This document shows, one piece after another, positions 16,478 through 58,579 of a stretch of DNA of 64,000 nt; position 1 is the stretch's first letter, and each line of letters opens with the position of its first letter. The notes beneath the pieces are model-generated. The model worked only from the letters and a program-made list of their open reading frames with translations, did not search any database and was not told the origin of the DNA. Both the position numbers and the translations under genes were made by a program. The stretch covers positions 4,784 through 68,783 of the forward strand of contig JACRFK010000010.1 of assembly GCA_016217925.1 (NCBI GenBank). The letters are read 5' to 3'. This DNA is from Candidatus Kaiserbacteria bacterium. GTDB taxonomy: Bacteria; Patescibacteriota; Minisyncoccia; Phycocordibacterales; UBA2100.

Positions 16478-16537
16478 CTCAACGTTATAGCACCGTCCCC
16501 CCTGTTAGGCGAGTGGATAAAAGGTGCGCGAAAGTAT

Positions 16538-16921
16538 TCAGGCGGAGGGCAGACGAAGCATAAGCGTTTCGATACCCTTGCGCATGCTTTTGCTTGTTTC
16601 GGGGTCGTTTTGAAGGTCCTTAATGGTTTCCTGCAGGCGGCTGTCGATGCCGTTACTGTTGTCGAAAAGGTACGAAGGAAATTCCTCAAAGCGCTCGAAG
16701 TACTCTACGAAAATAGACTTGCGGAGCTTTGCATTCAAGCTCGTTGCAGCGGCTTTCAATTCTTCGAAATTGAATTTCGGTTTCTTGTCCGCGTGAGCCA
16801 TTTCCGCATTGTATATCCTTTCCGGGTTCAGCGATATCTCCGTCTCCTTCGGCGAGTGACGCGCATGCGTGGAGTAACGGTGTAAAATATGAAGATGGCG
16901 GAGAGTTTCTTCACACGGCAT
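16538..16921 (-). CDS. hypothetical protein (start uncertain; alternative ATG gives a 16801 end)
   Basis: 127-aa ORF. An internal Met at aa 41 would avoid overlap with the divergent gene at 16889. Confidence 0.3.
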   Translation of the reverse strand: MPCEETLRHLHILHRYSTHARHSPKETEISLNPERIYNAEMAHADKKPKFNFEELKAAATSLNAKLRKSIFVEYFERFEEFPSYLFDNSNGIDSRLQETIKDLQNDPETSKSMRKGIETLMLRLPSA

Positions 16922-31295: not shown

Positions 31296-31419
31296 CGTCC
31301 CGTTAGAAGTCACGGAAGTTCTTCTAGTGGTAAGCAGGTGGTAGCTTTACATATGGTCGATATCTTAGGAACGATAATTTTTGAGTCGGAAGCGCAGGCT
31401 TCCTACTTCTAACGGGATG
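31296..31419 (+). promoter_or_regulatory. inverted-repeat leader element whose 3' arm overlaps the start codon (shared 13-mer TTCTAACGGGATG)
   Basis: GCGTCCCGTTAGAAGT (31296-31310) pairs with ACTTCTAACGGGATGCGC (31405-31422). The internal hairpin GGAAGC-gcag-GCTTCC is at ~31389-31404. The same 13-mer precedes the gene at 55522. Confidence 0.35.
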
Positions 31420-34399: not shown

Positions 34400-37155
34400 T
34401 TACTATGCGATTCTGCTATTTCGGCATTTACGACCCTGAATTTTCGCGCAACAGGATTTATATGCGCGCTCTTCGCGATGCAGGGCACGAAATCATCGAA
34501 TGTAGGGACAACAGTCGAGGGTTGCTTAAGTACATCCGGCTGGTGCAGCGTCTCCGTGCCCTGAAAGGTTCGTACGACGTCATACTAGTCGGGTACCCCG
34601 GGCACATTGTAGTGCCTCTTGCGCGGCTCTTTGGCGCTGCTCCGGTTGTGTCCGATCTGCTAGGCTCTCTTTCGGACGCTGCGGAGCATACGTACGATGC
34701 CGGATTTTTTGTTCGGACGTGGTACTCATGGGTGGATCGACTTGCAGTTGCGTTCTCAGATGCCATCCTCGTCGACAGTGAACTTCAGAAGGAATATATG
34801 CAGCGTCGATATGGTAGTGGGAAGAAATATCGAGTTGTGTACACAGGGGCGGATGAAGAGGTATTCGGACCGCGTGGGGAGCGAGGTGTCACGCGCACTG
34901 AGCCATTTGTTGTGTTGTTCCGGGGCAGGCTTATTCCCCAAGCGGGCATCATGCACATACTGGACGCCGCAGAAGGTTTACAAAACGACAAACGTTTCGC
35001 ATTTCGGATCATTGGATACGGTCCATTGCTTGAGGCTGTACGTGAGCGGGCCGGCGGATTATCGAATGTAGAGCTTATCGCAGAGCACATTTCTTTTGAT
35101 GAGATGCGCCGTCTGATGCTTGATGCCGACGTGAGCCTCGGCCAATTTGGGGACAACGAGCGATCGGACCGCAACATACCGCACAAAGCATATGAGTCGA
35201 TCTCTATGGGTATTCCCTACCTTACAGCACGAGTGCCTGGGATATCCGAACTTCTTGAGGATGAGGTCTCGTGTCTTATGGTGCCGTTGGAGAACTCGGA
35301 AGCGATTAAAGCCGCTCTTGAGCGGCTTAGAGACGACCGCCCACTTGGAAAGCAGCTTGCAGAGATGGCGCGGGCGGTATACGAAGCGCATGCGTCGGCT
35401 CGTGTTATTGCTTCAGCGATTACGGCTGTCTCCGTCTCATGCGTCGAAGCAAAGAAAAAGCTGGCCAAACGAAGCTTAGAGTGGATCGGGAAGCGTGAGA
35501 TGGTGGTCGTACTTGTCCTGCTCGCGGCATTCGTAGCGATACGCCTCCCCGGGCTCTCTCTTCCATATCATCAGGACGAGGCAAAGATTGGAGAGATTGT
35601 GCGCTCGCATATGGTAGGCGCGCTTTCCGGGCACCCACCGCTAACAGAACTCTTGTACCTCTCTGCCGGCGATATAGTCGGCTCAGACCATTTGCGTCTC
35701 ATACCGCTTATATTTGGCGTTCTATCGGCCATTCTCTTGTATGCGATAGTCCGACGGAGGGCGGGATTGCATGCGGCCTACGCCTCTCTCGCGCTCTATA
35801 TCATCTGCATGTACGGTGTATTTGCCTCGCTGATGGTAGATACGGATGGGGCCGTGCTCCCGACACTTTTTCTCGCGGCAGTGTACGCATATGACCGTTT
35901 TCGTGATGCGGCATCCGCTCGTGTTTCGTATGTATGGCTGTCTGTTCTTGCGCTCGCGCTCATCGCCGGGTTTCTAACCAAGCTCAGTTTCGTGCTCGTC
36001 TTGGGAGCGCTCGCGCTCGATTACCTCTTCGAAGTGCGTCACAGGCTTACACGCAGGCTTCTCATCCGTGCAGTTTTCGCCGCTTTGGTTTGTGGGGTTG
36101 CGGCAGCTGTTGCACTCGCGAGCGCACACTTTTTTCTCCCTTCTTTTGACGTGAGCCAGACTATTCTGCACGCGCTCTCCTATGTGCGATTTGAAGGGCG
36201 CGGATATTTACAGATCCTGATACAAGCGGTGAAGGCGGTCTTCTACCTTTCTCCGCTCCTTCTCCTACCACTGGTGTTTCTCACGAAAGATACCTTCACA
36301 AAGAACAGGATATTTTTCGTCTACCTCGGCTTGGGCGCGTTCTTTTACTTTGTCCTATTTGATTTCTCTCAGGGAGCGCTCGATAAGTATTTGATGTATA
36401 CCATCGTGCCGCTCGCAGCTATCATGGGTACCATCTTCACCGATGCAATGCGCGGACTTACGGTGCGAGCTCTCGCGGCAGGATCTATTCTCGGAGCAAT
36501 GTGTGCGACATTGCTCGTCGCCCTCAACTTCCTCTCACCGAGTGTCATGCCGCTCTATCCGAAAACGGAATGGCTCTCTGCGATCGCAGCCGGGAATTGG
36601 AATATTCTCATGCCGTTCACGGGGGGCGACGGACCGATAGGATTTTATGTCTCGTTCCTCGTCATCGCCGCTGGATTCGGCATCTCCGCCGCTCTTGCTG
36701 CTCTCGCGCTTTTCGTACCGAAAGCGCGCGGTGCGCTTCTCGTCGCTCTTATTGTGGTCGGTGTAGCGTTCAACGGTATTTTCATCGAAGAGTATATTTG
36801 GGGCCGCATTAACGGCAGCGCACCCTCGGCCCTTCGGGCGAGTCTCGCGTACATTGCTAGTTCAGACGATGTGAAAAGTATTATTTCCCACGGGGAGATC
36901 GGAGCGTACGAGCTCAGAGGAATGGGCAAATTCAGCGGCAGATTTTATGCGGTCCCCGGTTACGAGGAAGGACACAAGGCGTTATTCTCGAAGTTTACCG
37001 GCGCATATCTGGTCGTGGGTGTGCCCCGCTTCAATGATGCAAGTTTTTACAGTAAGTTTTTCAGTACATGCACACCAATCTTCACGACTTCGTCCGGAGT
37101 CATCAACGCCTACGTATATGGCTGTGCAGGAAGCGATCCATACGCTATAAAGTAA
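34396..37155 (+). CDS. fusion protein: GT-B glycosyltransferase (N, ~370 aa) + ArnT/PMT-like GT-C polytopic membrane glycosyltransferase (C, ~550 aa)
   Basis: N-terminal GT-B carries E-x7-E (HKAYESISMGIPYLTARVPGISELLEDE). The C-terminal domain has about 12 TM segments. Its first extracytoplasmic loop carries the PMT_2/ArnT signature LPYHQDEAKIGEIVRSHM (cf. ArnT LPDETRYAEISREM). Confidence 0.7.
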   Translation: MITMRFCYFGIYDPEFSRNRIYMRALRDAGHEIIECRDNSRGLLKYIRLVQRLRALKGSYDVILVGYPGHIVVPLARLFGAAPVVSDLLGSLSDAAEHTYDAGFFVRTWYSWVDRLAVAFSDAILVDSELQKEYMQRRYGSGKKYRVVYTGADEEVFGPRGERGVTRTEPFVVLFRGRLIPQAGIMHILDAAEGLQNDKRFAFRIIGYGPLLEAVRERAGGLSNVELIAEHISFDEMRRLMLDADVSLGQFGDNERSDRNIPHKAYESISMGIPYLTARVPGISELLEDEVSCLMVPLENSEAIKAALERLRDDRPLGKQLAEMARAVYEAHASARVIASAITAVSVSCVEAKKKLAKRSLEWIGKREMVVVLVLLAAFVAIRLPGLSLPYHQDEAKIGEIVRSHMVGALSGHPPLTELLYLSAGDIVGSDHLRLIPLIFGVLSAILLYAIVRRRAGLHAAYASLALYIICMYGVFASLMVDTDGAVLPTLFLAAVYAYDRFRDAASARVSYVWLSVLALALIAGFLTKLSFVLVLGALALDYLFEVRHRLTRRLLIRAVFAALVCGVAAAVALASAHFFLPSFDVSQTILHALSYVRFEGRGYLQILIQAVKAVFYLSPLLLLPLVFLTKDTFTKNRIFFVYLGLGAFFYFVLFDFSQGALDKYLMYTIVPLAAIMGTIFTDAMRGLTVRALAAGSILGAMCATLLVALNFLSPSVMPLYPKTEWLSAIAAGNWNILMPFTGGDGPIGFYVSFLVIAAGFGISAALAALALFVPKARGALLVALIVVGVAFNGIFIEEYIWGRINGSAPSALRASLAYIASSDDVKSIISHGEIGAYELRGMGKFSGRFYAVPGYEEGHKALFSKFTGAYLVVGVPRFNDASFYSKFFSTCTPIFTTSSGVINAYVYGCAGSDPYAIK

Positions 37156-37158
37156 CCT

Positions 37159-38574
37159 ATGCACCTCAGTAAGACCGCGCGAGAGTATTTCGATGCACAG
37201 GCGGACGAGCGTCTCAAGTGGCGGCGCAAGAATCCGTATTACCATGACTCGCTCGAATCCTTCGTCGGGTTCCTTGTCCCGCGCGGCAGTTCGGTGCTCC
37301 ACGTCGGAGCCGACTCGGCGTCGCTCCTCAATCTGTTGGCCCCGGCCCGTGGGCTGGGTATCCACGCGAGCGCCCGCATCATAGGTGAGGTCAACAAGCA
37401 GGGGATTTTGCCGGGGCTCCAATTCAAACAGACGGAGCTCTCGCAAGTCAAAGGTGTGTTCGAATATGTTGTTATTTCAGACTTGCTCGGACACGTCGAT
37501 GATATTGAGATGCTTTTTCGGGAAGCGACAAGGCTCATCTCGTGGCGCGGCCGCATAGTGGTGACACAGCACAGCGCATTGTGGGGGCCGGTACTGCGCC
37601 TCGCTTCAGCGCTCGGACTTCGGGTGCCATATCGCTTGGAAAATTGGGTCTCACGCACTGACCTTGAGAATTTCGCGCACCTCGCGGGGCTGGAGGCGGT
37701 GCGGAGCGGCACGCGGATGCTCATTCCGAAACGCGTCCCATTCATAAGCACGTTCTTCAACGCCTACCTTGCGAATATTTTTCCGTTCACACGGCTCGGC
37801 TTGTATCACTACGTCGTCTTGCGCAAGCAGGACTCCCGCTCACCGATTCCCAACCCCTCGCTTTCCATTGTTGTCCCGGCACGTAACGAGGCCGGTATGA
37901 TAGAGCGCATTGTAAAAGAGTTGCCAACGCTCGGAGAGTTCACCGAGCTAATCCTTGTCGAAGGACATTCCAAGGATAATACGTGGCAAGAAATCCAACG
38001 TGTCGCAAAAGAGTACGGCGCGAAGAAGAAAATACTCATCGCACAGCAGGAGGGCAAAGGCAAGGGTGATGCGGTACGCAAAGGATTCGACATGGCGACT
38101 GGGGATATCCTTACTATATACGATGCGGATATGACCGTGCCTGCTCCGGACGTGGAAAAATTCTATCGGGCCCTTGTCGAAGGAAGGGGGGATTTCATCA
38201 ATGGCTCGCGGCTTGTGTACCCCCTTGAGAAACAATCTATGCAATTTCTTAACTTTCTTGCCAATAAGTTTTTTGGGCTCGCTTTCAGCTGGCTTTTGAG
38301 CTCGAAGTTGAAAGACACGCTCTGCGGCACGAAGATGCTGTGGCGCGAGGACTACAAAGAAATACAGGCGGGCCGCTCGTTTTTCGGCGACTTCGATCCC
38401 TTCGGCGACTTCGACCTACTCTTCGGAGCCGCCAAGCTCAACAGAAAGATCATTGATATGCCGGTCCATTACGGAGAGCGTACCTATGGGACGACGAATA
38501 TAGAGCGGTGGAGTCACGGATGGTTGCTTCTGAAAATGACCGTTTTTGCCCTGCGTAAGATAAAATTTGTGTGA
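37159..38574 (+). CDS. fusion protein: degenerate class-I methyltransferase-like domain (N) + Dpm1/GtrB-like GT2 polyprenyl-phosphate glycosyltransferase (C)
   Basis: The N-terminal ~215 aa are a paralog of the downstream MT at 38571 (YFDAQADERLKWRRKNPYYHD vs YFDAIAAQYDYWKKKNAYYHE). The SAM motif I is degenerate (VLHVGADSAS vs VLEIGCGTGD). The C-terminal GT2 has LSIVVPARNEAGMI and the DxD motif YDADMT. Confidence 0.7.
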   Translation: MHLSKTAREYFDAQADERLKWRRKNPYYHDSLESFVGFLVPRGSSVLHVGADSASLLNLLAPARGLGIHASARIIGEVNKQGILPGLQFKQTELSQVKGVFEYVVISDLLGHVDDIEMLFREATRLISWRGRIVVTQHSALWGPVLRLASALGLRVPYRLENWVSRTDLENFAHLAGLEAVRSGTRMLIPKRVPFISTFFNAYLANIFPFTRLGLYHYVVLRKQDSRSPIPNPSLSIVVPARNEAGMIERIVKELPTLGEFTELILVEGHSKDNTWQEIQRVAKEYGAKKKILIAQQEGKGKGDAVRKGFDMATGDILTIYDADMTVPAPDVEKFYRALVEGRGDFINGSRLVYPLEKQSMQFLNFLANKFFGLAFSWLLSSKLKDTLCGTKMLWREDYKEIQAGRSFFGDFDPFGDFDLLFGAAKLNRKIIDMPVHYGERTYGTTNIERWSHGWLLLKMTVFALRKIKFV

Positions 38575-41432: not shown

Positions 41433-42695
41433 ATGTACAAGAATATTTCGCGATGCCGCATCTGTGGCAATGAGCAACTGAAAGAGGTACTCAATCTCGG
41501 TGAGCAATATCTTTCGTCTTCATTCGTAAAGAATAACGACGATGTTGATGAGGTCTCCAAGACACGCGTACCGCTCACCCTGCTTCTCTGCGACATCTGC
41601 GGCCTGGTCCAACTCCGCGAGACAGTAGACCGCGACTTGATGTATCGTAGCTATTTCTATCGCTCCGGAGTGAATCCCATGATGCGCGACGCGCTCGCCG
41701 ATGTAACGCGGGACATTAAAGCGCATGCAAATTTGAAAGAAGGTGACTCAGTACTTGATATCGGTTGCAACGACGGCACGATGCTTACGTACTTCCCGAT
41801 AACCATGCGTCGCATCGGTATGGACCCCGCGCAGAATATCAATAGGAGTTCTCTCGACCCTTCGATTACTGTCATTCAAGACTATTTTTCCGCCGATAAG
41901 GCTAGAGCGGCAAACGGTGGCGAATTCTTCAAGGTGGTATCTTCCATCGCGATGTTTTATGATCTCGACGACCCGAACGCATTCGTATCCGAAGTAAAAT
42001 CGGTGCTCGCTCAGGGCGGCACGTGGTGTGTGCAACTGAGCTACCTAGCGACGACGATACAGACGATGAATTTTTATGACATCTGCCATGAACATTTGCT
42101 CTACTACTCTTTGAGGACACTCAAATTTCTCATGGAGCGTCACGATCTCAAGATAATTGACGCCTCGCAAAATGATGTGAACGGTGGCAGCTTGCGATTC
42201 TTTGCGGTGCACGCCGATGACCCTCGCGATGTGTCGCCGGGTATGCGCGAAATAGAGCAAGCCGAGCAGGTACTGCGCCTTTCAGAAAAAGCGACGTACG
42301 AGCAGTTTGCTGCATCAATCGAGCAGCTGAAACGCACCACCCTCGATTTTCTAGAGGCAGAGAAAAAAGCCGGAGGAACCGTCGTCGGGCTTGGGGCCTC
42401 GACCAAAGGCAATGTACTCTTGCAGTACTTCGGTATCACGAAGGAAATGTTGCCTGCGATCTCTGACCGATACGCCGAGAAGGTGGGCTTGCGTACACTC
42501 GGCACCGATATCCGCGTCGTCTCGGAAGAGGAAGCGCGCGATATGAAGCCGTCGGCCATGCTCGTCCTCATCTGGTTCTTCAAAGACGAATTGTTGAAAC
42601 GTGAGAAGCAGTATCTGGAAGACGGAGGAAAATTATTCTTCCCGATGCCGTACCCGCATGTGGTAACAAAGGAGGGAGAAAAGCGGTTGAGCTAG
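41433..42695 (+). CDS. TylC3-type NDP-hexose C-methyltransferase-like protein (zinc ribbon + class-I MT + C-methyltransferase C-terminal domain)
   Basis: 420 aa. N-terminal CRICGNEQL...CDICGL zinc ribbon, motif I VLDIGCNDG and a long C-terminal domain. It is a paralog of the gene at 48213-49418. Confidence 0.7.
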   Translation: MYKNISRCRICGNEQLKEVLNLGEQYLSSSFVKNNDDVDEVSKTRVPLTLLLCDICGLVQLRETVDRDLMYRSYFYRSGVNPMMRDALADVTRDIKAHANLKEGDSVLDIGCNDGTMLTYFPITMRRIGMDPAQNINRSSLDPSITVIQDYFSADKARAANGGEFFKVVSSIAMFYDLDDPNAFVSEVKSVLAQGGTWCVQLSYLATTIQTMNFYDICHEHLLYYSLRTLKFLMERHDLKIIDASQNDVNGGSLRFFAVHADDPRDVSPGMREIEQAEQVLRLSEKATYEQFAASIEQLKRTTLDFLEAEKKAGGTVVGLGASTKGNVLLQYFGITKEMLPAISDRYAEKVGLRTLGTDIRVVSEEEARDMKPSAMLVLIWFFKDELLKREKQYLEDGGKLFFPMPYPHVVTKEGEKRLS

Positions 42696-45964: not shown

Positions 45965-47065
45965 ATGTCGCGAAAGCCCCTCGTGCATCTCGCGTATACG
46001 GTCCCACTCGGTCGGACGCGCGCCAGGCGTGCGCTCGACAAAGTGCTTCGACTGATGCACGTGACTCCGCTACACCGATTTGCACACGACGCGCTTATTC
46101 CTTGGCAGCACCCGATACGTGCGCCGCATAGCATCACACACAACCTTCTCGACGCTATTCGCGCACGCGGGTACGATGTCCGCCTCTATAGTTTGTATGA
46201 GCACACGGTCACGCATCTCGAGCCGGGGGATATCTTTATCGGGCAGCCCGTGCCAAGCGGCGGCTTCGGTGTCACACGAGCAGATACAGACGACACTGAG
46301 TCGGTAACTTCGAGGACAATACGCAAGTACCCGAGCGCTCGAAACTTTCTTATGATGCCGTATTCGCATGATGCCCAATACTCACTCTTCTGGAAGGATC
46401 TGTTGCGAGATAACAATACCGCAGGCGGTGGAGCTATTCTCGTAGGTGGGCAGATTTGGGAGCGTGACTGGGAGACAAAATCACCATTTGCAGACCTCGG
46501 ACGACTTAAGAAAATCCACCTAACCTGCATGGGCATTGACGCATCAGAGTATCCGCTCGTCAAAAAGAGTTTCAACCCAAAGGGAAAACGGAAATATCTC
46601 TATATCGGGCACACTGCCTGGTACAAAAATACTGTCGAGCTTGAGCGCATAGCAGCACGGATGCCGGAGTACGAATTCGCGCACATTGGAGGAGGGGAAG
46701 TGAAAGGGTGGAAGAAGCTCGCGAATTTTGCGCCGCTGACACCTGAATATATGAAGAAGCTTGCGAGTGAGTACGACATCTTTTTGAATGTCAGCACGGC
46801 AGATCCGCAGGCAACGACCATCGTGGAGCAGATGTGTTTCGGCTTTGCGATCGCGTGTACGCCGGAAACGGGCTATGACTATCCGGCGCTGGCGACTCTG
46901 CGTACCAACGATACAGAGCACAATATCCGCGTTCTACAGCACCTACAGCAAGTCGATGAGGAAGAACTGCTTATCCAAGCCCGCGAGAATAGGAGAATTG
47001 CCGAAGAGAAACACGGGTGGGCTCAGTTTACGGACCAAGTCCTCGATTTCACCGAGATCCGTTAA
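45965..47065 (+). CDS. hypothetical protein, possible GT-B-like glycosyltransferase
   Basis: 366 aa. The C-terminal half (KRKYLYIGHTAWYKNTVELERIAARMPEYEFAHIGGGEV) resembles a GT1/GT4 C-domain only weakly. Confidence 0.35.
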   Translation: MSRKPLVHLAYTVPLGRTRARRALDKVLRLMHVTPLHRFAHDALIPWQHPIRAPHSITHNLLDAIRARGYDVRLYSLYEHTVTHLEPGDIFIGQPVPSGGFGVTRADTDDTESVTSRTIRKYPSARNFLMMPYSHDAQYSLFWKDLLRDNNTAGGGAILVGGQIWERDWETKSPFADLGRLKKIHLTCMGIDASEYPLVKKSFNPKGKRKYLYIGHTAWYKNTVELERIAARMPEYEFAHIGGGEVKGWKKLANFAPLTPEYMKKLASEYDIFLNVSTADPQATTIVEQMCFGFAIACTPETGYDYPALATLRTNDTEHNIRVLQHLQQVDEEELLIQARENRRIAEEKHGWAQFTDQVLDFTEIR

Positions 47066-48212: not shown

Positions 48213-49418
48213 CTATTCTATGACATGAGGGGTAATGAAGCTCAGGTGGGGGTATTTCGGAGAGATCTTGCCTTTCAAGAAATCGGCGATATTCCAAGCG
48301 AGAATGAGGGCGTGCGTAACGTCTTCGGTTATAGCGTCGTCAGAGCGTATCGGAAGGTGCGAACCGGGAGTATATTTGCCGATTTTTAAAGGGGATGCGT
48401 CGGTGGCGAAGTCAATGAGCGTGGTGTCTATGCCACAGTAGTTTAAAAGCGTATTTCCTTTGGCAGCCGCACCTATCGCTACCACTTTCCCGCCTCCTGT
48501 ACGAGCATCCACCAATTCTTTAAGCAAATGTATCTTGCAGTCCCTAACGCTTGCTGCGAATTTCTCCCACGTTCCCACAGTGTAAAGCCCGGATTTCTCC
48601 TCTAAAGCGATTTGCTTTTTTACCAAGGGGCTTTCTTCGCCGAAGCCGACAAAGATCCGTATCGATCCGCTCATGTAGTCATTTTCCTCAAGGTGGGTAA
48701 TGGAAAGACCAAATTTCTTGAAAAAGGGGACAAGAGGCTTCACGGCGACGTACGATACGTGTTCAAGGTAGATGACGTCAAAATGTTTCTTCCTGATAAT
48801 TTCCAGGAAGTAAGGAAGTTCAATCACAAAGCTGCCTTCTTTGTCCAAAATGGAAATCACACATTTCATGAATTCATCAAGAGGAGAAATGTGATTGAAT
48901 GCGTTCGTTATCGTAATTGCTTTCGCTCGACCCTTTTTCAAGATTATTTTGGCGGACGATTCGTTAAAAAAATCATTGATCGTAGGAATGCCATTCTTCT
49001 CGGCAAGCGCCACAATGTTTGGAGCCGGATCCACTCCTTGTATCGTTGCTCCGAGATTTTTGAATGCACCAAGGAGAGTGCCGATGTTGCTGCCTATGTC
49101 CACGATAAGTTCTCCCTTCTGTACTCCCGCTCGCTCGCTTACCTCCTTTGCCATATCCGTGAAGTGCCCTACTGAAATCTTAGAATTGCCGGAGTCGTAG
49201 CTGTAATCATTTTCTTGATAGCGGACTTCTGCGGGGACGACAAAACTGTTCATCCCATGTCCACAATTTTGGCAGAGAAGTACGGAAAGAGGATACCGTC
49301 TCTCCGGTTCTTGGAGTTGATTCTCTTTGAGAAAGAAGTCCGCCAGCGGATGGAATCCAAGATCGAGGACCTTCTTTAGAGACTGAGAACCGCACAAATG
49401 ACAGTTCGTGACATTCAT
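48213..49418 (-). CDS. TylC3-type NDP-hexose C-methyltransferase-like protein, second copy (AT-rich)
   Basis: 401 aa. CHLCGSQSL...CQNCGH zinc ribbon, motif I IVDIGSNIG and the C-terminal domain. Same architecture as 41433-42695 but markedly lower GC. Confidence 0.7.
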   Translation of the reverse strand: MNVTNCHLCGSQSLKKVLDLGFHPLADFFLKENQLQEPERRYPLSVLLCQNCGHGMNSFVVPAEVRYQENDYSYDSGNSKISVGHFTDMAKEVSERAGVQKGELIVDIGSNIGTLLGAFKNLGATIQGVDPAPNIVALAEKNGIPTINDFFNESSAKIILKKGRAKAITITNAFNHISPLDEFMKCVISILDKEGSFVIELPYFLEIIRKKHFDVIYLEHVSYVAVKPLVPFFKKFGLSITHLEENDYMSGSIRIFVGFGEESPLVKKQIALEEKSGLYTVGTWEKFAASVRDCKIHLLKELVDARTGGGKVVAIGAAAKGNTLLNYCGIDTTLIDFATDASPLKIGKYTPGSHLPIRSDDAITEDVTHALILAWNIADFLKGKISPKYPHLSFITPHVIE

Positions 49419-49804
49419 AGGGCGATTTTATCATCCACGAAGGGTCCATCCTTGAAGGCGTACATGAGGGCGTCTTCGATGACCCGTACCTCATGACCGC
49501 CCCGTATGATGAGCAGGCATTGGCCCTCCGTAACGCGTTTATTCTCAATTAGTTCTCCTTTCTCGTCAAAAATACTTGCCTCAATCGCACCCTTGATCAC
49601 GACGATGGCCTCCTGGGGTTGTTGGGTGGTCTTAGTGATTTTTTTGTGGGTATGTTTTGCGACCACATGGCCACTCTTCCGTTTCATGAGGAGTAATTGG
49701 ATTGACCACGCAGGATCAGTGGCAGGAAACGTGCCCTCTTGGATTGATTCAAGATCCAGGACGACCGCAAACACTTCTCCTCCCGATTTGATTTCAGTTC
49801 TCAT
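49415..49804 (-). CDS. FdtA/WxcM-like cupin, second copy
   Basis: 129 aa. HVVAKHTHKKITKT (the HxHKK signature shared with 47792). Confidence 0.5.
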   Translation of the reverse strand: MRTEIKSGGEVFAVVLDLESIQEGTFPATDPAWSIQLLLMKRKSGHVVAKHTHKKITKTTQQPQEAIVVIKGAIEASIFDEKGELIENKRVTEGQCLLIIRGGHEVRVIEDALMYAFKDGPFVDDKIAL

Positions 49805-50774
49805 TGGGGTGTGCCATATCGTAATCTATCATCGCGTGAACAATCTCGTGAAATTTCATTTTTGGTTTCCAGCCTATCTTTTTTATTTTTGAAGCATCTC
49901 CAAGAAGCAGGGGAACCTCATTCGGCCTCTTGTAGCGCTCGTGGATTTGTACGTATTTCTTCCAATTCAGCCCGACGTATGAAAACGCCTCTTCGACAAA
50001 TTCCTTGATGGTATGGGTTTCTCCTGTCGCGACGACGTATACGTCCGGTTCCTTTTGCTGCATGATGAGATATATCGCCTCAACAAACTCCGGGGACCAT
50101 CCCCAGTCGCGTTTTGCGTTTAGATTTCCGAGCACCAAATTTTCTTGAAGCCCTTGTTTAATCCTAGCCACTGCTTTGCTCACTTTTTTTGTGACGAAGG
50201 TACCGCCGCGTCGCGGGCTTTCGTGATTGAACAGTATGCCTGTAGTCGCAAACATGCCGTATCCGTCGCGGTATTGTCTTGTGAGATGGTACGCAGCCAA
50301 TTTTGCGACACCATACGGACTTTGAGGATTCATCGGTGTCTTTTCGTTATACGGGGCCGGTACACCCGGGACTCCAAACATCTCCGAACTCGACGCCTGG
50401 TAAAACTTGGTATGGGGGGATAGTTTCCTCAGCGCTTCCAGGACGTTCAATACACCGACCGCATTCGCCTCCAGGGTATATTGCGGTACCTCAAAGGACA
50501 CTTTTACATGAGACATGGCGCCGAGGTTATAGAATTCATCAGGCCGAACTTCTGAAATTATGCCGGCTATAGATGGACTGTCCGTGAGGTCACCGTGATG
50601 CGTATGAAAATCCGGATTTCCGACAATGAGATGGTCTATCCGAGCTGAGGCAAAAGAAGAGAGCCGGCGCATTATCCCGTGCACCTCGTATCCTTTTGAG
50701 AGAAGAAGCTCCGCTAAATATGAACCGTCCTGTCCCGTGACGCCACTTATAATGGCTTTTTTCTTATTCTTCAT
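49794..50774 (-). CDS. gmd: GDP-mannose 4,6-dehydratase (lower-GC copy)
   Basis: First ATG (aa 9; the track start is GTG). [36 protein letters not shown]. Confidence 0.9.
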   Translation of the reverse strand: MKNKKKAIISGVTGQDGSYLAELLLSKGYEVHGIMRRLSSFASARIDHLIVGNPDFHTHHGDLTDSPSIAGIISEVRPDEFYNLGAMSHVKVSFEVPQYTLEANAVGVLNVLEALRKLSPHTKFYQASSSEMFGVPGVPAPYNEKTPMNPQSPYGVAKLAAYHLTRQYRDGYGMFATTGILFNHESPRRGGTFVTKKVSKAVARIKQGLQENLVLGNLNAKRDWGWSPEFVEAIYLIMQQKEPDVYVVATGETHTIKEFVEEAFSYVGLNWKKYVQIHERYKRPNEVPLLLGDASKIKKIGWKPKMKFHEIVHAMIDYDMAHPNEN

Positions 50775-50894
50775 AGACGAGTTTGAGTCATCATACACGT
50801 TTTGACATCTTTTTCATCTGATCTTTGAAAGAATCTCCAAGAAGAAAGCAATACTAGCAGACTGCTATTCTTCGGACAAGCTATCGATGTTATC

Positions 50895-52625: not shown

Positions 52626-53561
52626 TCACGCGCTGTTAAAAGAATTTTTGAACCATACGTACGTGCTCGCTAGTCCTTGCTCGAGCGGAATCGTGTGTTT
52701 CCAACCGAGTGCGTGGATCTTGCTTACATCTAGCTTCTTTTGGGGCGTACCGTCGGGCTTAGTTTTGTCCCAGACTATTTTCCCATTGTAGCCGACGGTG
52801 GCGGCAATGAGTTCAGCAAGCTCCCTGATGGTCACATCTTCTCCCGTACCGATGTTGATGATAGAAGGATCATCGTATGTTTCCATGAGGAAGACGCAAG
52901 CGCTTCCAAGGTCGTCAACGTGCAAAAATTCGCGTTTGGGGGCGCCGGTGCCCCAGACCGTGACCGTCGGGGCGTCGGACATTTTTGCCTCGTGGAAACG
53001 TCGTATCAGCGCGGGAAGGACATGCGAACGCTCGGGGGAGAAATTGTCGTTGGGACCATATAGATTCGTCGGCATGACGGAAATGAAATTGCAGCCGTAT
53101 TGACGGTGGTACGCCTGGCACATTTCAATTCCCGCGATTTTGGCCATGGCATACGCGCTGTTCGTTTCTTCGAGAGGACCGGTCATGAGGTACTCCTCCT
53201 TGATAGGCTGGGGTGCGAGTTTGGGGTAAATGCATGAACTCCCGAGGAAGAGCAATTTCTTGACCCCGCTTTTGTATGCCTCGTGCAAGACATTGGTCTG
53301 CACGATGAGGTTCTCGCGGATGAAATCTGCCGGATAGGTATTGTTGGCCATGATGCCTCCCACGCGTGCGGCGGCGAGGAAGACGTATTCGGGCCTTTCA
53401 GTTTCAAAAAATGCCCGAACAGCGATTGGATCCAACAGGTCGAGCTCGTCATGTGTTCGTACAATAATATTGGTGTATCTTTTCCGTTCGAGCTCTCGTA
53501 CGATAGATGAGCCGACGAGGCCTCGGTGTCCGGCGACATATATTTTGGAGTTCTTTTCCAT
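52626..53561 (-). CDS. fcl: GDP-L-fucose synthase (GDP-4-keto-6-deoxy-D-mannose 3,5-epimerase/4-reductase)
   Basis: 311 aa. [15 protein letters not shown] is a typical Fcl/WcaG start. YAMAK (YxxxK). Confidence 0.85.
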
Positions 53562-53564
53562 TCT

Positions 53565-54041
53565 TTATTTCAACGCTTTTAAGGCTCCTTCAATCCGTGC
53601 CTTCACGTTGGGGTGTAGAGTCGGATCGCTCACAGAGAACCAGCGTATTTCGCTGTGTTGGCTATCCGGCTTCATCGATTCGTCCGCAATAGTGCATACA
53701 AAGTATACATCGACAGCGTGGTAGTTTACTCCCTCAAAGATGGAGGAATCGTTTATTTCGTTGAGGACACCGGCAAACGTAAGCGCTGTCGGGGGAATAG
53801 AGAGTGCGAGCTCTTGCTTGGCGATGCGACAAGCGGCCTCCAAGAAGTTTTCATTCTTGAAGAAGCGGCCGCCGAAACTGTAAAATTCTCCCGCATAGGG
53901 TTCATTGGTCCGCTTGCCAAGAAGTACCTTCGACTTGTCGGGATTCAGGAATAGTACGTCAACGGTGACGAGCGGCATGTTTTCCATCGCGGCGCGGTAG
54001 AGCTCTAATGGCACCATTCCTCCTATAGGTTGTTTCATCAT
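53565..54041 (-). CDS. NUDIX hydrolase, GDP-mannose mannosyl hydrolase (Gmm/WcaH)-like
   Basis: 158 aa. NUDIX fold (GKRTNEPYAGEFYSFGGRF...E..AACRIAKQELAL). Position gmd-...-fcl-gmm as in colanic-acid-type loci. Confidence 0.65.
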   Translation of the reverse strand: MMKQPIGGMVPLELYRAAMENMPLVTVDVLFLNPDKSKVLLGKRTNEPYAGEFYSFGGRFFKNENFLEAACRIAKQELALSIPPTALTFAGVLNEINDSSIFEGVNYHAVDVYFVCTIADESMKPDSQHSEIRWFSVSDPTLHPNVKARIEGALKALK

Positions 54042-54322
54042 CCCGTTAGAGATAGGAAGCCTTTCAAGCGATTCTTGATGTAGCGCTTACCCATCCCAAA
54101 TTTAAGAAATAATTCTCTCGACCGTGCGTCATCTTCGTTCCTGCACATTTCGTAGTATATCAACTCTAGCGGACGACGTCCTTTTGTCGAACGACTAAGA
54201 CCGTCGCTGTGTTGCTTGAAACGCTTCCGTAGGTCGTTCGTGAACCCCGTATACGTTTCCCCGTCTTTGAGGCTTCGGAGAATGTAAGTATAGAAACTTT
54301 CTTTATCTCTAACGGGAATCAT
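54038..54322 (-). CDS. GIY-YIG nuclease domain protein (stand-alone, 94 aa)
   Basis: [29 protein letters not shown] is the GIY-YIG motif. Wedged, with overlapping stops and starts, between the gmm-like gene and the high-GC gmd. Confidence 0.7.
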
Positions 54323-55368
54323 GCTTCTTTGTTGTCCAACTCGGCGAGATCAGCTTCTATCATAATCCGGATAAGTTCTTTGAATTTGACTTTTGGTTTC
54401 CATCCGAGCTTTCGCTTTGCCTTGGACGCATCTCCTTGAAGAATATCCACTTCGGCAGGGCGGTAGTAGTGCGGATCTATTTCAACGAGAGTTTTCCCCG
54501 AAAGGCGGTCGATGCCTTTTTCCTGCCGGCCTTTTCCTTTCCAGATAACGTCGAATCCCAGTTGGCGCCCGGCCTCTTCGACGAGCTCGCGGACGGAATG
54601 CGTCTCGCCCGTCGCGAGGATGTAATCGTCGGGCTCTTTTTGCTGGAGCATGCGCCACATACCCTCCACGTAATCTTTGGCGTAGCCCCAGTCGCGCTTC
54701 GCGTCGAGGTTGCCCAGATATATCTTTTCTTGCAGGCCACGGCTGATGCGGGAGAGCCCGGCAGTAACTTTGCGCGTGACGAACGTCTCGCCACGGCGGG
54801 GGCTCTCATGATTGAACAATATTCCGTTGCATGCGAAGAGTCCGTAGCTCTCGCGGTAATTCTTGGCTATCCAAAATCCGAACACTTTTGCGCAGCCGTA
54901 CGGCGAGCGGGGATGGAAGGGCGTCGTTTCCTTTTGGGGTATCTCGTTGACCTTTCCGAACATTTCCGAGGAAGATGCCTGGTAGAAGCGCGTTTTGATG
55001 CCCGTCTCGCGGATGGCGTCGAGCATACGGAGTGTGCCTATCGCGTCTACATCGGCGGTGTATTCGGGGATGTCGAAGCTCACGCGCACATGGCTCTGCG
55101 CGCCGAGGTGGTATATCTCGTCGGGCCTCACTTTTTCCAGAATGCGATTGATGCTGCTCGTGTCGGAAAGATCGCCGTAGTGGAGGAGGAGGCGGACGTT
55201 GCGTTCGTGCGGGTCGCGTAGGATATGTTCGAGTCGTCCCGTGTTGAAACTGCTGGAGCGGCGGATGATGCCGTGTACCTCGTAGCCCTTCTCGAGGAGC
55301 AGCTCGGCGAGATAGGAGCCGTCTTGGCCGGTGATGCCCGTAATGAGGGCTTTTTTCGCTTTTGCCAT
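54319..55368 (-). CDS. gmd: GDP-mannose 4,6-dehydratase (high-GC copy)
   Basis: 349 aa. [36 protein letters not shown]. Confidence 0.9.
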
Positions 55369-55454
55369 CGGTGCATGGTAGCCTCGCTGGGCTCATTTCG
55401 CAAGGAAATCCGGTTGCATGCAGTAGACGAGGAGTGCATACTTCGGCGCATGAG

Positions 55455-55524
55455 TCCCGTTAGAAATAGCCCGCCCCGTTGGCCCTTCGGGCGCGCAAGC
55501 GCGGGCGCGATTTCTAACGGGATG
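55455..55524 (+). promoter_or_regulatory. compound hairpin leader whose 3' arm overlaps the start codon (shared 13-mer TTCTAACGGGATG)
   Basis: TCCCGTTAGAAAT (55455-55467) pairs with ATTTCTAACGGGA (55510-55522). They enclose a GC-rich sub-structure that includes GCCC-ttcg-GGGC. The ATG at 55522 is inside the stem. Confidence 0.35.
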
Positions 55525-56331
55525 AAGAAAACGAAGAAACCGGTTGTATGGGTGGCGGTTTCCGGCGGCTTCGACCCCCTACACATCGGGCACGTGCGCA
55601 TGTTCCGCGAGGCGCGGCAGCTTGGCGACAAACTCGTCGTCATTATGAACAACGACAACTGGTTGCGAGGGAAGAAAGGTTTCGTATTCATGCCGCAGAA
55701 GGAGCGCGCCGAGATAATCAGGCACCTGCCATTTGTCGACAAGGTCGTCCTTACCGACCACCAGAAAGGTGATGCGGACAAAAGCGTCTCGCGTACGCTC
55801 ACCAAAGTCCGCCCGGACATCTTCGCCAACGGCGGTGATAGATTTTCAAAAAACGTCCCCGAAGTCGCCGTGTGTAAAAAGCTCGGCATCAAAATGGTTT
55901 TCAATGTGGGGCAAGGCGGCAAGGTGCAGTCTTCATCGTGGATGATAAGCAATTCGCGCCGGCCCGCATCGAAATCCGTCCGGCCGTGGGGAGAATATTA
56001 CGGATGGGATGAGGGGAGTGAGTGGAATCTCAAGACTATTTACATCAAACCGAAAAGCCGATTGAGCCTGCAATACCATCATCATCGCGAAGAGTGGTGG
56101 CTGCTTGTGGAAGGTGATGCGACCGCGACTGTGCACGAAGGCAAGGAGGTACTCACGATACCGCTCCGCAAAGGGGAAGTGTTCCGCGTCGGTAAAAAGC
56201 AGATACACCGGCTCTCGTCCAAAAAAGGCGGAGTCGTCGTCGAAGTGGCGTACGGGAAATTTAGCGAGGAAGACATCGTGCGGCTAGAAGACGACCACGG
56301 CCGCCCAACTTTAAAACGGCGCGGGCGGTGA
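55522..56331 (+). CDS. fusion protein: RfaE-domain-II-like cytidylyl/adenylyltransferase (HxGH nucleotidyltransferase) + type-II phosphomannose-isomerase-like cupin
   Basis: Internal ATG (aa 100 of track ORF 55225). N-terminal VVWVAVSGGFDPLHIGHVRMFREARQLGDKLVVIMNNDNWLRGKKG matches HldE/RfaE II. The C-terminus (SLQYHHHREEWWLLVEGDATATVHEG...EEDIVRLEDDHGR) matches the ManC/PMI C-terminal cupin. Confidence 0.7.
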   Translation: MKKTKKPVVWVAVSGGFDPLHIGHVRMFREARQLGDKLVVIMNNDNWLRGKKGFVFMPQKERAEIIRHLPFVDKVVLTDHQKGDADKSVSRTLTKVRPDIFANGGDRFSKNVPEVAVCKKLGIKMVFNVGQGGKVQSSSWMISNSRRPASKSVRPWGEYYGWDEGSEWNLKTIYIKPKSRLSLQYHHHREEWWLLVEGDATATVHEGKEVLTIPLRKGEVFRVGKKQIHRLSSKKGGVVVEVAYGKFSEEDIVRLEDDHGRPTLKRRGR

Positions 56332-56344
56332 TATACTCTTTCCA

Positions 56345-58579
56345 ATGATACTCGAAAAAACAATCCGTTTTATCGTTCTCAGCGCGTTATTCCTCCTTCT
56401 TCTCATTCCATTCCTCGTCCCGCAATCGTTGTTCTTCCCGTTCATCACGGGTAAGAACTTCGCGTTCCGCATACTCATCGAAATAATGGCTGGCGGGTGG
56501 CTTGCGCTCGCTCTCACGTATCCAAAATACCGCCCGCGCCGTTCATGGATACTTGCCGCGTTCTCTGTATTCGTTGTCATCATCGCACTTGCCGATGCGC
56601 TCGGCGCGTACCCATTCAAAAGCTTTTGGAGCAACTATGAGCGCATGGACGGTTGGGTGACGCTCGCACACCTCTTCGTGCTGGTCGTCGTCGCATCTTC
56701 CATGTTGAACACCGAGAAACTCTGGGGCACTTTTTGGAAGTCGGCGCTCGGAGTGTCCGTCGCCGTCGCGGGATATGGTTTTCTCCAACTTTTTGGCGTG
56801 GCGAGCCTCACCGCAGGTTTTTCGTCGCTCTCTCGGCTCGACGCGACGTTCGGCAATCCCATTTACCTCGCCGCGTACATGCTCTTCCACGTGTTCATCG
56901 CGGCGCTCCTCTGGGCCCAAGCGTGGACGAAGAGCGCTCCGGGTTCTAGGCTCGGATTTTCTATCGCCTACGGAACCGTGCTTGTCATCGATTGTATCGT
57001 ACTGCTTTTGACGTCGACACGGGGGACCATTCTCGGACTCGTCGGAGGGGTTTTTATTTCGGCGGTACTCGTCGCACTTTTCGCACGCGATGCCAAAAAT
57101 AGTCTCGTTCGTCCGGCTGTCGGCGTCGTTATAGGCCTCGTTGTGCTATCGGGAGGGTTCTTCTTGGTGCGCGACGCCGCATGGGTACAGAATGTCAGTT
57201 TCTTGCAGCGGCTCGGGACCATTTCCGCATCGGATAGCACGACGAAAGCTCGTTTCTACAATTGGGGTATGGCGTGGGAAGGGGTAAAGGAACGCCCCGT
57301 CTTGGGCTGGGGGCAGGAAAATTATGCGGTCGTGTTCGACAAATACTACGACCCGAGGATGTATAACGCCGAGCAATGGTTCGATCGCGTGCACAATGTT
57401 GTCTTCGACTGGCTCGTCGCGGGCGGCATTCTCGGACTCCTCGGCTATCTCAGTATTTTCGCAGCTGCACTTGCGGCATTGTGGCACCGTTCGCGCGGTG
57501 CACAGAATCTATCCGAGTTCACGGTCGTCGAGAGCAGTATCCTCTCGGGAGTCCTCTCGGGATACTTTTTCCACAATCTCTTTGTGTTCGACAACGTCAC
57601 GAGCTACATGCTTTTCGGTCTCATCATTGCCTATATAGTATGGCGCAAGAGTGAATCGGCAGGGTCTCTGAGGCTATGGGCTCAGTCGCTACCGGTGACC
57701 AGCTTGCCCTACGTCGCGATAGCTGCCGCCTTGCTCACGTGGGGTGGAGCATATTGGATCAATGCGGCGGCGCTTGAGCAGAATCGTCTCCTTATTCAGG
57801 CTATTAGTCCGCAAGCGGAAGGGGTCGGCAAGAACCTCGAACTCATCAAGAGCGCCATCGCAGAGGGTTCTGTGGGTACGCAAGAAGCCCGCGAGCAACT
57901 TTTGCAAATGACGACGAAGATTATTTCCGCCTCTGGAATCGATCCGAGCATCAAGCAGCAATTCTACGACGTCGCTGTCGCGGAAATGAAGAAGCAGCAG
58001 GAAGCATCCCCTCTGGATGCGCGTCCCGCGCTCTTCTTGGGGCTGCTCCACAATGCCGCTGGTAATTATGTCGCGGGCGCCGAAGCACTTCTACATGCAC
58101 ACGAGCTTTCACCGGCGAAACAATCCATCTTGTATGAGATGGCGCAAAATGCGCAGATGCGCGGAGATGTCGCGGGCATGATGCGGAACCTGAAAACCGC
58201 TTACGAGTTGTACACCGATAATCCGCAGGCCCGCATTCTCTATGCCGCGGCGTTGATCCGTACAGGAAATAATGCTCTCGCCGATGAATTGCTTGCCACT
58301 ATTATCCCCACAGGCGAGGCGGCTGATCCACGTATCACCAGCGCATACCTGGAACACAAACGCTACGACAAAATAGCGCCTATCTGGAGTGCGTACGTGG
58401 CGGTGCACCCAGATAATGTGCAGGGGTACTTCACGCTCGCGGCTGCATACTACGGAATGGGAGAACGCACGAAGGCAATCGAGGTTCTCGTTGCAGCATC
58501 GAAGCTCTCTCCGGCGGTCGCGGCGCAGGCGGCGCCATTCATCGAGCAGATAAAGAACGGCACCCTCAAGCTCGAATAA
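56345..58579 (+). CDS. O-antigen ligase (WaaL/Wzy_C)-family polytopic membrane protein with C-terminal TPR repeats
   Basis: 744 aa. About 12 TM in the N-terminal ~430 aa with a large extracytoplasmic loop. The C-terminal ~300 aa is helical and TPR-like (AYELYTDNPQARILYAAALIRTGNNALA...). Confidence 0.75.
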   Translation: MILEKTIRFIVLSALFLLLLIPFLVPQSLFFPFITGKNFAFRILIEIMAGGWLALALTYPKYRPRRSWILAAFSVFVVIIALADALGAYPFKSFWSNYERMDGWVTLAHLFVLVVVASSMLNTEKLWGTFWKSALGVSVAVAGYGFLQLFGVASLTAGFSSLSRLDATFGNPIYLAAYMLFHVFIAALLWAQAWTKSAPGSRLGFSIAYGTVLVIDCIVLLLTSTRGTILGLVGGVFISAVLVALFARDAKNSLVRPAVGVVIGLVVLSGGFFLVRDAAWVQNVSFLQRLGTISASDSTTKARFYNWGMAWEGVKERPVLGWGQENYAVVFDKYYDPRMYNAEQWFDRVHNVVFDWLVAGGILGLLGYLSIFAAALAALWHRSRGAQNLSEFTVVESSILSGVLSGYFFHNLFVFDNVTSYMLFGLIIAYIVWRKSESAGSLRLWAQSLPVTSLPYVAIAAALLTWGGAYWINAAALEQNRLLIQAISPQAEGVGKNLELIKSAIAEGSVGTQEAREQLLQMTTKIISASGIDPSIKQQFYDVAVAEMKKQQEASPLDARPALFLGLLHNAAGNYVAGAEALLHAHELSPAKQSILYEMAQNAQMRGDVAGMMRNLKTAYELYTDNPQARILYAAALIRTGNNALADELLATIIPTGEAADPRITSAYLEHKRYDKIAPIWSAYVAVHPDNVQGYFTLAAAYYGMGERTKAIEVLVAASKLSPAVAAQAAPFIEQIKNGTLKLE

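Follow-up and report, generated by a model that had tools for sequence, protein, structure and literature searches.

The gene examined here lies in a stretch of 64,000 nucleotides (64 kb, the window) of contig JACRFK010000010.1 from a Candidatus Kaiserbacteria bacterium. It encodes a 269-residue protein, the target, in which an N-terminal nucleotidyltransferase (NTase) domain of the cytidylyltransferase-like (HxGH) superfamily precedes a C-terminal cupin of the phosphomannose isomerase (PMI) type. Judged from its sequence and from the partners that the two domains have in relatives, the target is probably a bifunctional PMI/mannose-1-phosphate nucleotidylyltransferase, most likely a guanylyltransferase. 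In it, a non-homologous, HldC-like HxGH domain would stand in for the GT-A domain of ManC. A wider proposal is made more tentatively, with slightly less than even confidence. The HxGH domain may represent an unrecognised class of hexose-1-phosphate nucleotidylyltransferases, a GDP-mannose pyrophosphorylase built on the HldC fold. Much of the Candidate Phyla Radiation (CPR) and some DPANN archaea would obtain their activated mannose mainly or only through this domain, which would be a modular unit, found alone or fused to PMI, phosphomannomutase (PMM), Gmd or glycosyltransferases.

The gene occupies the end of a longer open reading frame (ORF) of 368 codons (55225-56331, forward strand), the first 99 codons of which overlap a gmd gene on the opposite strand. 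With the ATG at 55522 as start codon, the product is a protein of 269 aa, MKKTKKPVVWVAVSGGFDPLHIGHV...EDIVRLEDDHGRPTLKRRGR, closed by a TGA stop at 56329-56331. This start is supported because the homologues, 260-295 aa long, begin at the same point (MKK...). The Pfam scan places PF01467 (CTP_transf_like) at aa 14-110 (E=5.8e-14, 52.9 bits against a cut-off of 21) and PF01050 (MannoseP_isomer) at aa 150-257 (E=2.1e-21, 76.7 bits against 23.6), the latter covering profile positions 10-116 of 116. Both matches exceed the gathering scores and bear out the fusion of an HxGH transferase to a PMI-type cupin read by the initial annotation, whose quoted motifs (GGFDPLHIGHV, LGDKLVV, SLQYHHHREEWW and EDIVRLEDDHGR) are all present. 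An AlphaFold2 model built from 47 family members (pLDDT 93.5, pTM 0.73) shows a Rossmann-like domain and a beta-barrel. On the other hand, the nucleotidyltransferase of canonical ManC is missing: the Pfam scan of the target gives no PF00483 match, and the GT-A motif is absent from its ORF. The whole protein scores 66.7 bits with the equivalog TIGR01479 (GMP_PMI; cut-off 372.95) and 53.3 bits with NF012004 (cut-off 859), the model of the type II bifunctional PMI-GDP-mannose pyrophosphorylases (PMI-GMP), and such models are matched over no more than their own last ~110 residues.

The cupin is the more readily recognised half. It aligns with positions 358-466 of TIGR01479 in NCBIfam, and its modelled fold superposes on the Thermococcus PMIs 7zvm and 7zvy. 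Residues Q184, H186, E191 and H229 align with the metal-binding H/H/E/H of solved cupins, including 7zvy. In PMIs the zinc ligands are a glutamine, a histidine, a glutamate and a distal histidine, and the glutamine in the first ligand position is a PMI signature. Across 92 representatives of 50%-identity clusters, Q184, H186, R189 and E191 are kept at 96% or more; in the family alignments Q184, H186, E191 and H229 are kept at 98% or more, with H229 invariant in both alignments, A1 and A2.

The N-terminal domain belongs to the HxGH superfamily (TIGR00125, 53.3 bits against 27.7). The initial annotation found it most similar to heptose-1-phosphate adenylyltransferase. This holds at the superfamily level and for the GGD[YR]x5PE segment common to HldC; at the equivalog level it fails, as the best NCBIfam match, rfaE_dom_II (TIGR02199), reaches 69.3 bits against a cut-off of 181.5. 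The other models score lower still: 45.1 bits for TagD (TIGR01518, cut-off 165.4) and at most 31 bits for NadD/NadR/NadM, RibF and CoaD (cut-offs 103-341). In the model this domain superposes on 3glv, on Burkholderia pseudomallei HldC 5xf2 (31-32% identity) and on the cytidylyltransferase domain of Fom1 (5x3d). Although 3glv is the top match in the PDB, it was dropped as a guide to function; it lacks the GGDR..PE segment, and the context of the target is sugar metabolism. This structure is possibly an archaeal enzyme of the FAD-synthetase (RibL) type, a lead that we did not find supported. Likewise, a TagD/CDP-glycerol identity was ruled out by score and context.

Within this domain G15, F17, D18, P19, H21, G23 and H24 are kept at 90-97% or more in the family alignments, and G105, D106, R107 and E114 are invariant in alignment A1. 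The target's GGDRFSKNVPE aligns with GGDYDMDALPE of B. pseudomallei HldC (5x9q), in a segment (G104-V115) presumed to bind the sugar phosphate; by analogy with HldC, it fits a pocket for a manno-configured pyranose 1-phosphate. Further on, K134 and S137-S139 are kept at 90% or more in A1. The motif of the heptose transferases, (F/L)xxG(R/C)STT, is not found here, and the target has FNVGQGGKVQSSS in its place (the published motif used for comparison is (F/L)xxGRSTT; PMC11573728).

The architecture is no one-off. The target is one member of a very large family centred on the CPR. The window protein has no exact-sequence match in the contig collection. In a collection of 5.8 billion proteins all 120 best matches share both domains, under names that are generic or contradictory. 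Most members come from the CPR and are called 'adenylyl/cytidylyltransferase family protein'; some are labelled heptose kinase/adenosyltransferase by the Joint Genome Institute (JGI), and some relatives 'glycerol-3-phosphate cytidylyltransferase'. The best named homologues are from Candidatus Kaiserbacteria and Parcubacteria. A library clustered at 50% identity holds 245 clusters below 1e-30. The best 150 of them comprise 91 with the order NTase-cupin, four with cupin-NTase and 55 with the transferase alone or with other partners. Among 80 species-level genomes with the transferase, it is a stand-alone protein in 60, a cupin fusion in 19 and a PMM fusion in one. Stand-alone transferases are 150-170 aa long and 57-72% identical to the N-terminal domain of the target. 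Full-length fusions at 43-44% identity occur in a few DPANN archaeal metagenome-assembled genomes (MAGs) and in two gammaproteobacterial ones. Literature searches found no description of the HxGH transferase-cupin fusion. A survey of CPR metabolism covers phosphoglucose isomerase (PGI)/PMI and cupin PGI, and the fusion is absent from its passages on those terms (PMC7304191).

Conservation extends over both halves. Among the 92 representatives, GxFDPxHxGH, N43, K51, R62, GGDR, PE and SSS are kept at 95% or more in the transferase, and W156-G157 (PWG), S182, Q184, H186, R189, E191, H229 and D251..R254 in the cupin, and alignment A1 shows little or no variation at these residues. Even at identities as low as ~35%, the set of metal ligands and the PMI motif flanking it hardly vary. 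Because residues of catalytic type and metal ligands are conserved across so diverse a family, both domains look catalytic.

The partners of the transferase in relatives (their loci are labelled L001, L002 and so on, and their proteins P0343, P0402 and so on) include several enzymes of mannose metabolism. In other fusions the transferase domain is 55-70% identical to that of the target. Its partner in 63 clusters, formed at 90% identity, is a HAD-IIB mutase that matches the eukaryotic PMM family (PF03332, 60.7 bits). This HAD-PMM domain occurs in other fusions as well, with the PMI cupin in P0357 and P0399 and with a GH130 phosphorylase in P0377. All three activities would meet in P0343, a single 560-aa protein with the order PMM-NTase-cupin. 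It is paralleled by P0402 (GT-A NTP_transferase-PMM-cupin), in which the canonical transferase stands in the place of the HxGH domain. Gmd is also joined to the transferase. At L022 (3287-5407; Patescibacteria UBA918) a single stop-free frame, possibly encoding a trifunctional protein, runs through NTase, PMI cupin, a ~45-aa linker and full Gmd, and in L038/P0416 an NTase-Gmd frame (Gmd part 517 bits) is joined through an inserted repeat. Where the genes are separate, gmd is the immediate divergent neighbour, at 87-177 bp, in the window, L001/L015, L010 and L013.

Operons give a similar picture. One has the order PGI/PMI (TIGR02128, 215.2 bits, above the cut-off of 213.9), NTase-PMM, GH130, GH130, and another GH130, GT4 glycosyltransferase, NTase-PMM. 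Several GH130-GH130 clusters carry the cupin and the transferase in shuffled order, and one locus with a transferase relative contains GH26. GH130 phosphorylases release alpha-mannose 1-phosphate. In Thermoanaerobacter, two GH130 genes, a mannose-1-phosphate guanylyltransferase and a GT4 gene form a proposed salvage cluster for GDP-mannose (PMC4264767). The CPR transferase sits at the position of the guanylyltransferase in clusters of this type.

The window itself holds a glycan locus from ~25.6 to 58.6 kb. A need for GDP-mannose is indicated by its two gmd genes, fcl and the gene of a NUDIX hydrolase resembling Gmm, together with a set of GT2, GtrA and PMT_2 genes, and no other source of the nucleotide sugar is visible in the 64 kb. 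The two Gmd enzymes noted at the outset both pass the cut-off of TIGR01472, and the reported lack of an ordinary ManC in the window also stands: Pfam scans of the plausible genes give no PF00483 match, and the GT-A motif GGxGxR[LFMI]xP is absent from every stop-free frame of at least 200 aa. The search for canonical ManC and ManB covered the window and ~10 kb around the relatives. No PMM of either type, SIS isomerase or sugar kinase occurs in the 64 kb.

The domain identities, the conserved residues and the links by fusion and operon suggest the following scheme, in which both activities, the sugar, its alpha anomer and the nucleotide are predicted. The cupin would act as a metal-dependent PMI, interconverting fructose 6-phosphate and mannose 6-phosphate. 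Then, a separate HAD-type PMM, encoded outside the window, would make alpha-mannose 1-phosphate. The HxGH domain would subsequently convert mannose 1-phosphate and a nucleoside triphosphate, most probably GTP, into NDP-mannose and pyrophosphate, through the in-line attack of the sugar phosphate on the alpha-phosphate of the nucleotide. The preference for GTP stems solely from the context, with Gmd, Fcl and transferases that depend on GDP-mannose. The product would go to the enzymes of the adjacent gmd, fcl and Gmm-like NUDIX genes and to those of the glycosylation genes (GT2, GtrA and PMT_2) of the locus, which would make the target a functional equivalent of the type II PMI-GMPs (ManC/AlgA).

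Several points weigh against this scheme. To our knowledge, the cytidylyltransferase superfamily has no hexose-1-phosphate enzyme, and we know of no member that uses GTP or an alpha-hexose 1-phosphate. Its known members take ATP or CTP, in some cases UTP, and beta-anomeric heptose 1-phosphate. The same substrates, ATP, CTP or UTP with beta-heptose 1-phosphate, are given for the characterised members (PMC11573728). Consequently, the supply of GDP-alpha-mannose to Gmd would demand a shift in specificity for the anomer as well as for the base. The HAD partner is closest, among solved structures, to a glucose-specific enzyme, the Lactococcus alpha-phosphoglucomutase (alpha-PGM) 4bnd. The ManC of E. 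coli has the same cupin motif and reportedly lacks PMI activity, so that conservation of the cupin is no proof of isomerase activity. The triple fusion P0343 is known from one contig of 1.8 kb, and the fusion of L038, perhaps also P0389, arises by read-through of an inserted repeat and not by a designed linker. The transferase is also a promiscuous module, fused elsewhere to unrelated partners (DAC-like, MutT-like NUDIX, HNH, SduA_C). Finally, a generic GT-A sugar-1-phosphate transferase lies less than 5 kb from the standalone transferase of L050, so canonical enzymes may coexist with the HxGH one. In favour of a hexose substrate, HldC accepts a hexose-1-phosphate surrogate (PMC7993394).

The first alternative keeps the sugar and changes the nucleotide: ADP-, CDP- or UDP-mannose would be made, possibly from beta-mannose 1-phosphate, for a CPR-specific glycan, while a GT-A enzyme encoded elsewhere supplies GDP-mannose. 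The nucleotides used by the characterised relatives (HldC, TagD, ECT/CCT and the heptose transferases of PMC11573728), namely ATP, CTP or UTP, speak for it, as do the GT-A transferase in L050 and the neighbourhood of Wzy_C-TPR and SecA genes, which is kept with or without a nearby gmd. However, the transferase shares a single ORF with Gmd, an equivalog-grade GDP-mannose enzyme, or lies immediately beside it; the fused or neighbouring PMM and GH130 deliver the alpha anomer; and in the P0343/P0402 pair the HxGH domain takes the place of a GT-A guanylyltransferase. We regard this alternative as unlikely.

A second alternative is that one half only is catalytic. Either the cupin is a binding or regulatory module, or the transferase acts on an unrelated housekeeping substrate (for instance an alcohol phosphate or the precursor of a cofactor) and is fused solely for co-regulation. 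A non-catalytic, binding or regulatory cupin has reportedly been suggested for ManC proteins with GMP activity only. The top solved homologue of the transferase, 3glv, has no demonstrated function, the fusion partners are many and unrelated, and the standalone form is the commonest (60 of the 80 species-level genomes). These observations are set against the near invariance of the metal ligands and PMI motif described above, the replacement of the cupin by a SIS-type PGI/PMI where the mannose module lacks a cupin, and the matches to cofactor transferases (NadD/NadR, CoaD, RibF), which do not exceed 31 bits. One idle half is quite improbable.

The third alternative would place the protein in an NDP-heptose pathway, with a cupin that replaces GmhA by isomerising sedoheptulose 7-phosphate to D-glycero-D-manno-heptose 7-phosphate and an HldC-like domain that activates heptose 1-phosphate. 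The best family-level match is indeed rfaE_dom_II, the transferase is 31-32% identical to HldC and shares its GGD[YR]x5PE segment, and some members carry the heptose labels of JGI. Heptose transferases also exist with one, two or three domains, some of them fused to an isomerase (PMC11573728). On the other hand, the rfaE_dom_II score lies far under its cut-off, FNVGQGGKVQSSS replaces the STT motif, the window and the annotated loci L001-L009 contain no GmhA of the SIS type, heptose kinase (PfkB/GHMP) or GmhB, and the partners PMM, PGI/PMI, GH130 and Gmd are enzymes of hexose, specifically mannose, metabolism. The initial annotation had proposed that an activated hexose or heptose is supplied by an unusual route. 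Of these, the hexose, as mannose, gains support from the PMI, PMM, GH130 and Gmd links; the heptose, with its pathway genes missing from these loci and the STT motif altered, becomes very unlikely. As doubtful is glucose activation, with the cupin as a PGI and the transferase making NDP-glucose from the glucose 1-phosphate of a HAD-type alpha-PGM: the HAD partner matches 4bnd better than PMMs (2e-31 against 1e-20), the SIS partner is a bifunctional PGI/PMI and cupin-type PGIs exist, also in the CPR (PMC7304191), whereas the target's cupin matches PF01050 at 2e-21 with no match to the cupin-PGI family in Pfam and with cupin PGIs at E>0.01 in a profile search, and Gmd and the GH130 enzymes neighbouring relatives are mannose-specific, the characterised GH130 members yielding mannose 1-phosphate (PMC4264767).

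Table 1. Position, strand and basis of the features discussed, in coordinates of the window.
Feature	Position	Strand	Basis
Whole gene, 269-aa HIGH-type nucleotidyltransferase plus PMI-type cupin	55522..56331 (stop codon included)	+	ORF, sequence, Pfam
N-terminal nucleotidyltransferase domain, aa 1-148, cytidylyltransferase-like (HxGH) superfamily, HldC-like	55522..55965	+	PF01467, TIGR00125
HIGH signature H21-I-G-H24 within GGFDPLHIGH	55582..55593	+	read from sequence
GGDRFSKNVPEV segment G104-V115, presumed sugar-phosphate-binding region; HldC counterpart GGDYDMDALPES	55831..55866	+	alignment to 5x9q
C-terminal transferase motif GQGGKVQSSS, aa 131-139; corresponds to GxSTT/ISTT of relatives plus a 5-residue insertion	55912..55938	+	alignment
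C-terminal cupin, aa 149-269, ManC/type II PMI kind	55966..56328	+	PF01050, 76.7 bits
Cupin motif Q184-Y-H186-H-H-R189-E-E191 (SLQxHxxRxE), three of four presumed metal ligands	56071..56094	+	alignment with 7zvy
H229, fourth presumed metal ligand	56206..56208	+	aligns with distal His of cupin motif
GC-rich hairpin (arms TCCCGTTAGAAAT / ATTTCTAACGGGA), miniature repeat copy ending at the target start codon	55455..55522	+	repeat search
gmd (GDP-mannose 4,6-dehydratase), divergent, 153 bp between start codons	54319..55368	-	TIGR01472, 576.8 against 415
94-aa GIY-YIG nuclease cassette within inverted repeats	54038..54322	-	Pfam GIY-YIG, 2.2e-15
NUDIX hydrolase resembling GDP-mannose mannosyl hydrolase (Gmm/WcaH)	53565..54041	-	PF00293; NF011963, 67.3 against cut-off 146
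GDP-L-fucose synthase (fcl)	52626..53561	-	NF047922, 497.4 bits against cut-off 500
Second gmd paralogue	49794..50798	-	TIGR01472, 420.8 against cut-off 415
Wzy_C (O-antigen ligase/O-oligosaccharyltransferase-like) membrane protein with C-terminal TPRs	56345..58579	+	PF04932 and TPR

Downstream of the target, the Wzy_C-TPR gene starts after 14 nt and is followed by SecA and GatB genes. L001, L002, L004 and other genomes show the same succession of fusion gene, Wzy_C-TPR and SecA. On the other side, beyond fcl, come a GT2 gene, the second gmd, C-methyltransferases, a flippase and GT2, GtrA and PMT_2 genes. Two C-methyltransferases (41433-42695 and 48213-49418), each with a zinc-binding Methyltransf_13 and a Methyltransf_14 domain, lie beside the second gmd and SDR genes, which suggests that C-methylated 6-deoxy-hexoses are made from GDP-mannose in this locus. 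Further proteins of the window combine domains in one chain: a 919-aa protein (34396-37155) joins GT4 to a PMT_2 membrane domain resembling GT-C mannosyltransferases, and one of 471 aa (37159-38574) joins a methyltransferase to GT2. A 658-aa ORF (31381-33357) carries GT4 and the middle of a UDP-glucose/GDP-mannose dehydrogenase (PF03721, matched from profile position 71), and is an unusual fusion or a truncated dehydrogenase. No Pfam domain is matched, at the thresholds applied (1e-5 or 1e-3), by four long ORFs at 14890-18367 and 45965-47065 (325, 335, 492 and 366 aa).

The start of the target gene coincides with the end of an inverted-repeat element, TCCCGTTAGArrT ... AyyTCTAACGGGA (arms TCCCGTTAGA[AG][AG]T and A[CT][CT]TCTAACGGGA). 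It is present in three copies in the window, where 0.18 arm matches are expected by chance. The full copy is the GIY-YIG cassette, whose arms lie at 54042-54053 and 54305-54316; it is an insertion that separates gmd from the NUDIX gene and overlaps each of them by an ATGA stop/start. The two miniature copies, at 55455-55522 (68 bp) and 31298-31417 (~120 bp), have no ORF, and the hairpin upstream of the target has no Rfam match. All three copies end exactly at an ATG, that of the target, of the NUDIX gene or of the GT4 gene, the true start of the last being probably 31417. Other CPR copies occur at L012 (9881-9994), L038 (10517-10618) and L020 (19772-20046), and also in L076, L082 and L050. These are either ~275 bp, the size of a GIY-YIG cassette, or ~100-118 bp, and most are flanked by ATG or GTG. 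In L012 the element directly precedes the GTG start of an NTase-cupin gene, and in L038 it connects the transferase with gmd, so that the two share an ORF. The element looks like a small mobile cassette with derivatives resembling miniature inverted-repeat transposable elements that land on start codons.

The transferase module shows further combinations. P0406, P0410, P0411 and ~40 more CPR proteins of ~338 aa carry a C-terminal DAC/DisA_N-like domain (26.2 bits, just under the cut-off of 27) with visible DGA and RHxxA-like motifs, which hints at a possible link between c-di-AMP signalling and sugar-nucleotide supply. P0436 and P0445 (930 aa) unite a CMP-sugar synthetase (PF02348), the HxGH transferase, NeuB and cupin_2, and may belong to a nonulosonic-acid pathway, possibly of the KDN type, derived from mannose. 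In P0215, P0250, P0259 and P0318 the transferase is fused to Shedu SduA_C nuclease, HNH and NUMOD3 modules, and homing-endonuclease-like insertions seem frequent around its gene in CPR genomes. L002 has a second, stand-alone copy (428-946; E=6e-55 to the target's N-terminal domain), ~9 kb upstream of its NTase-cupin gene and adjoining a B12-binding radical SAM enzyme, and the two paralogues may differ in substrate. The GT2 domain fused in P0398 matches the GT2 genes of the window weakly (E=1.9e-5). Two candidate readings were discarded. The GT-A gene directly after the fusion in L063 (SAR86) is not a real ManC, as NCBIfam identifies it as GalU (320 bits, cut-off 326.8), with a ManNAc dehydrogenase upstream, and it has no bearing on the activation of mannose. 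A reading of the NTase-NUDIX fusion P0405 as NadM-NUDIX-like fails as well, with NAD-pathway models at 21 bits or less and a NUDIX part of the MutT kind.

Glycans of mannose, fucose, rhamnose and many 6-deoxy-sugars start from GDP-mannose and, as far as we know, every characterised GDP-mannose pyrophosphorylase uses the GT-A fold. If the proposed function is true, the HxGH domain is a second, non-homologous solution, and the target is a clear instance of a textbook bifunctional enzyme in which one domain has been displaced by a non-orthologous one; the novelty would be an analogous enzyme and a new architecture for a known reaction. It would also correct thousands of annotations ('cytidyltransferase family', 'heptose adenylyltransferase', 'glycerol-3-P cytidylyltransferase', 'HAD-IIB hydrolase') and fill a gap in the reconstructed metabolism of CPR bacteria, in which surface glycans are believed to serve for attachment to hosts. 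A sugar-nucleotide synthase as small as ~145 aa would, in addition, be useful to the enzymology toolbox.

Among known systems, TagD and ECT/CCT share with the target the superfamily, the HxGH signature and a similar length; they have no GGDR..PE segment, and the target has no teichoic-acid context. The Thermoanaerobacter salvage cluster is like the loci of CPR relatives that hold two GH130 genes and sometimes GT4, whereas the locus of the target is a biosynthetic glycan locus without GH130. We take the guanylyltransferase of that cluster, annotated as mannose-1-phosphate guanylyltransferase, to be of the ordinary GT-A type. A small single-cupin fold (TM score 0.79-0.84, normalised to the target), with aligned metal-site positions, is shared by the Thermococcus PMIs 7zvm and 7zvy. 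They are 18-21% identical to the target, carry His in place of the Gln184 of the target and of ManC-type PMIs, and have no transferase fusion.

HldC is the closest functionally characterised relative. It has in common with the target the fold, HxGH and GGD[YR]x5PE, and its substrate is a manno-configured sugar 1-phosphate. The two differ in the C-terminal motif (STT in HldC, SSS with the five-residue insertion in the target), in the fusion partner (a PfkB kinase or SIS isomerase for the HldC kind, a cupin for the target) and in the context, which is GmhA/GmhB for HldC and PMM, GH130 and Gmd for the target family. Unlike HldC, the target is predicted to use an alpha-hexose 1-phosphate, probably with GTP.

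As proposed here, the target works like a type II PMI-GMP (ManC, AlgA, XanB) but is not a member of that family, because it has no GT-A domain and scores below the equivalog cut-off. The N-terminal domain of these enzymes is a GT-A domain (PF00483) of ~290 aa within a protein of ~470 aa, against the Rossmann-like HxGH domain of ~145 aa within the 269 aa of the target. Common to both are the PF01050 cupin with SLQxHxHRxExW, the distal His and a DIxRxxDxYGR tail, as well as the logic of placing steps 1 and 3 of the pathway in one polypeptide. In the colanic-acid cluster of E. coli, ManC is likewise found beside gmd, fcl and a Gmm-like NUDIX gene.

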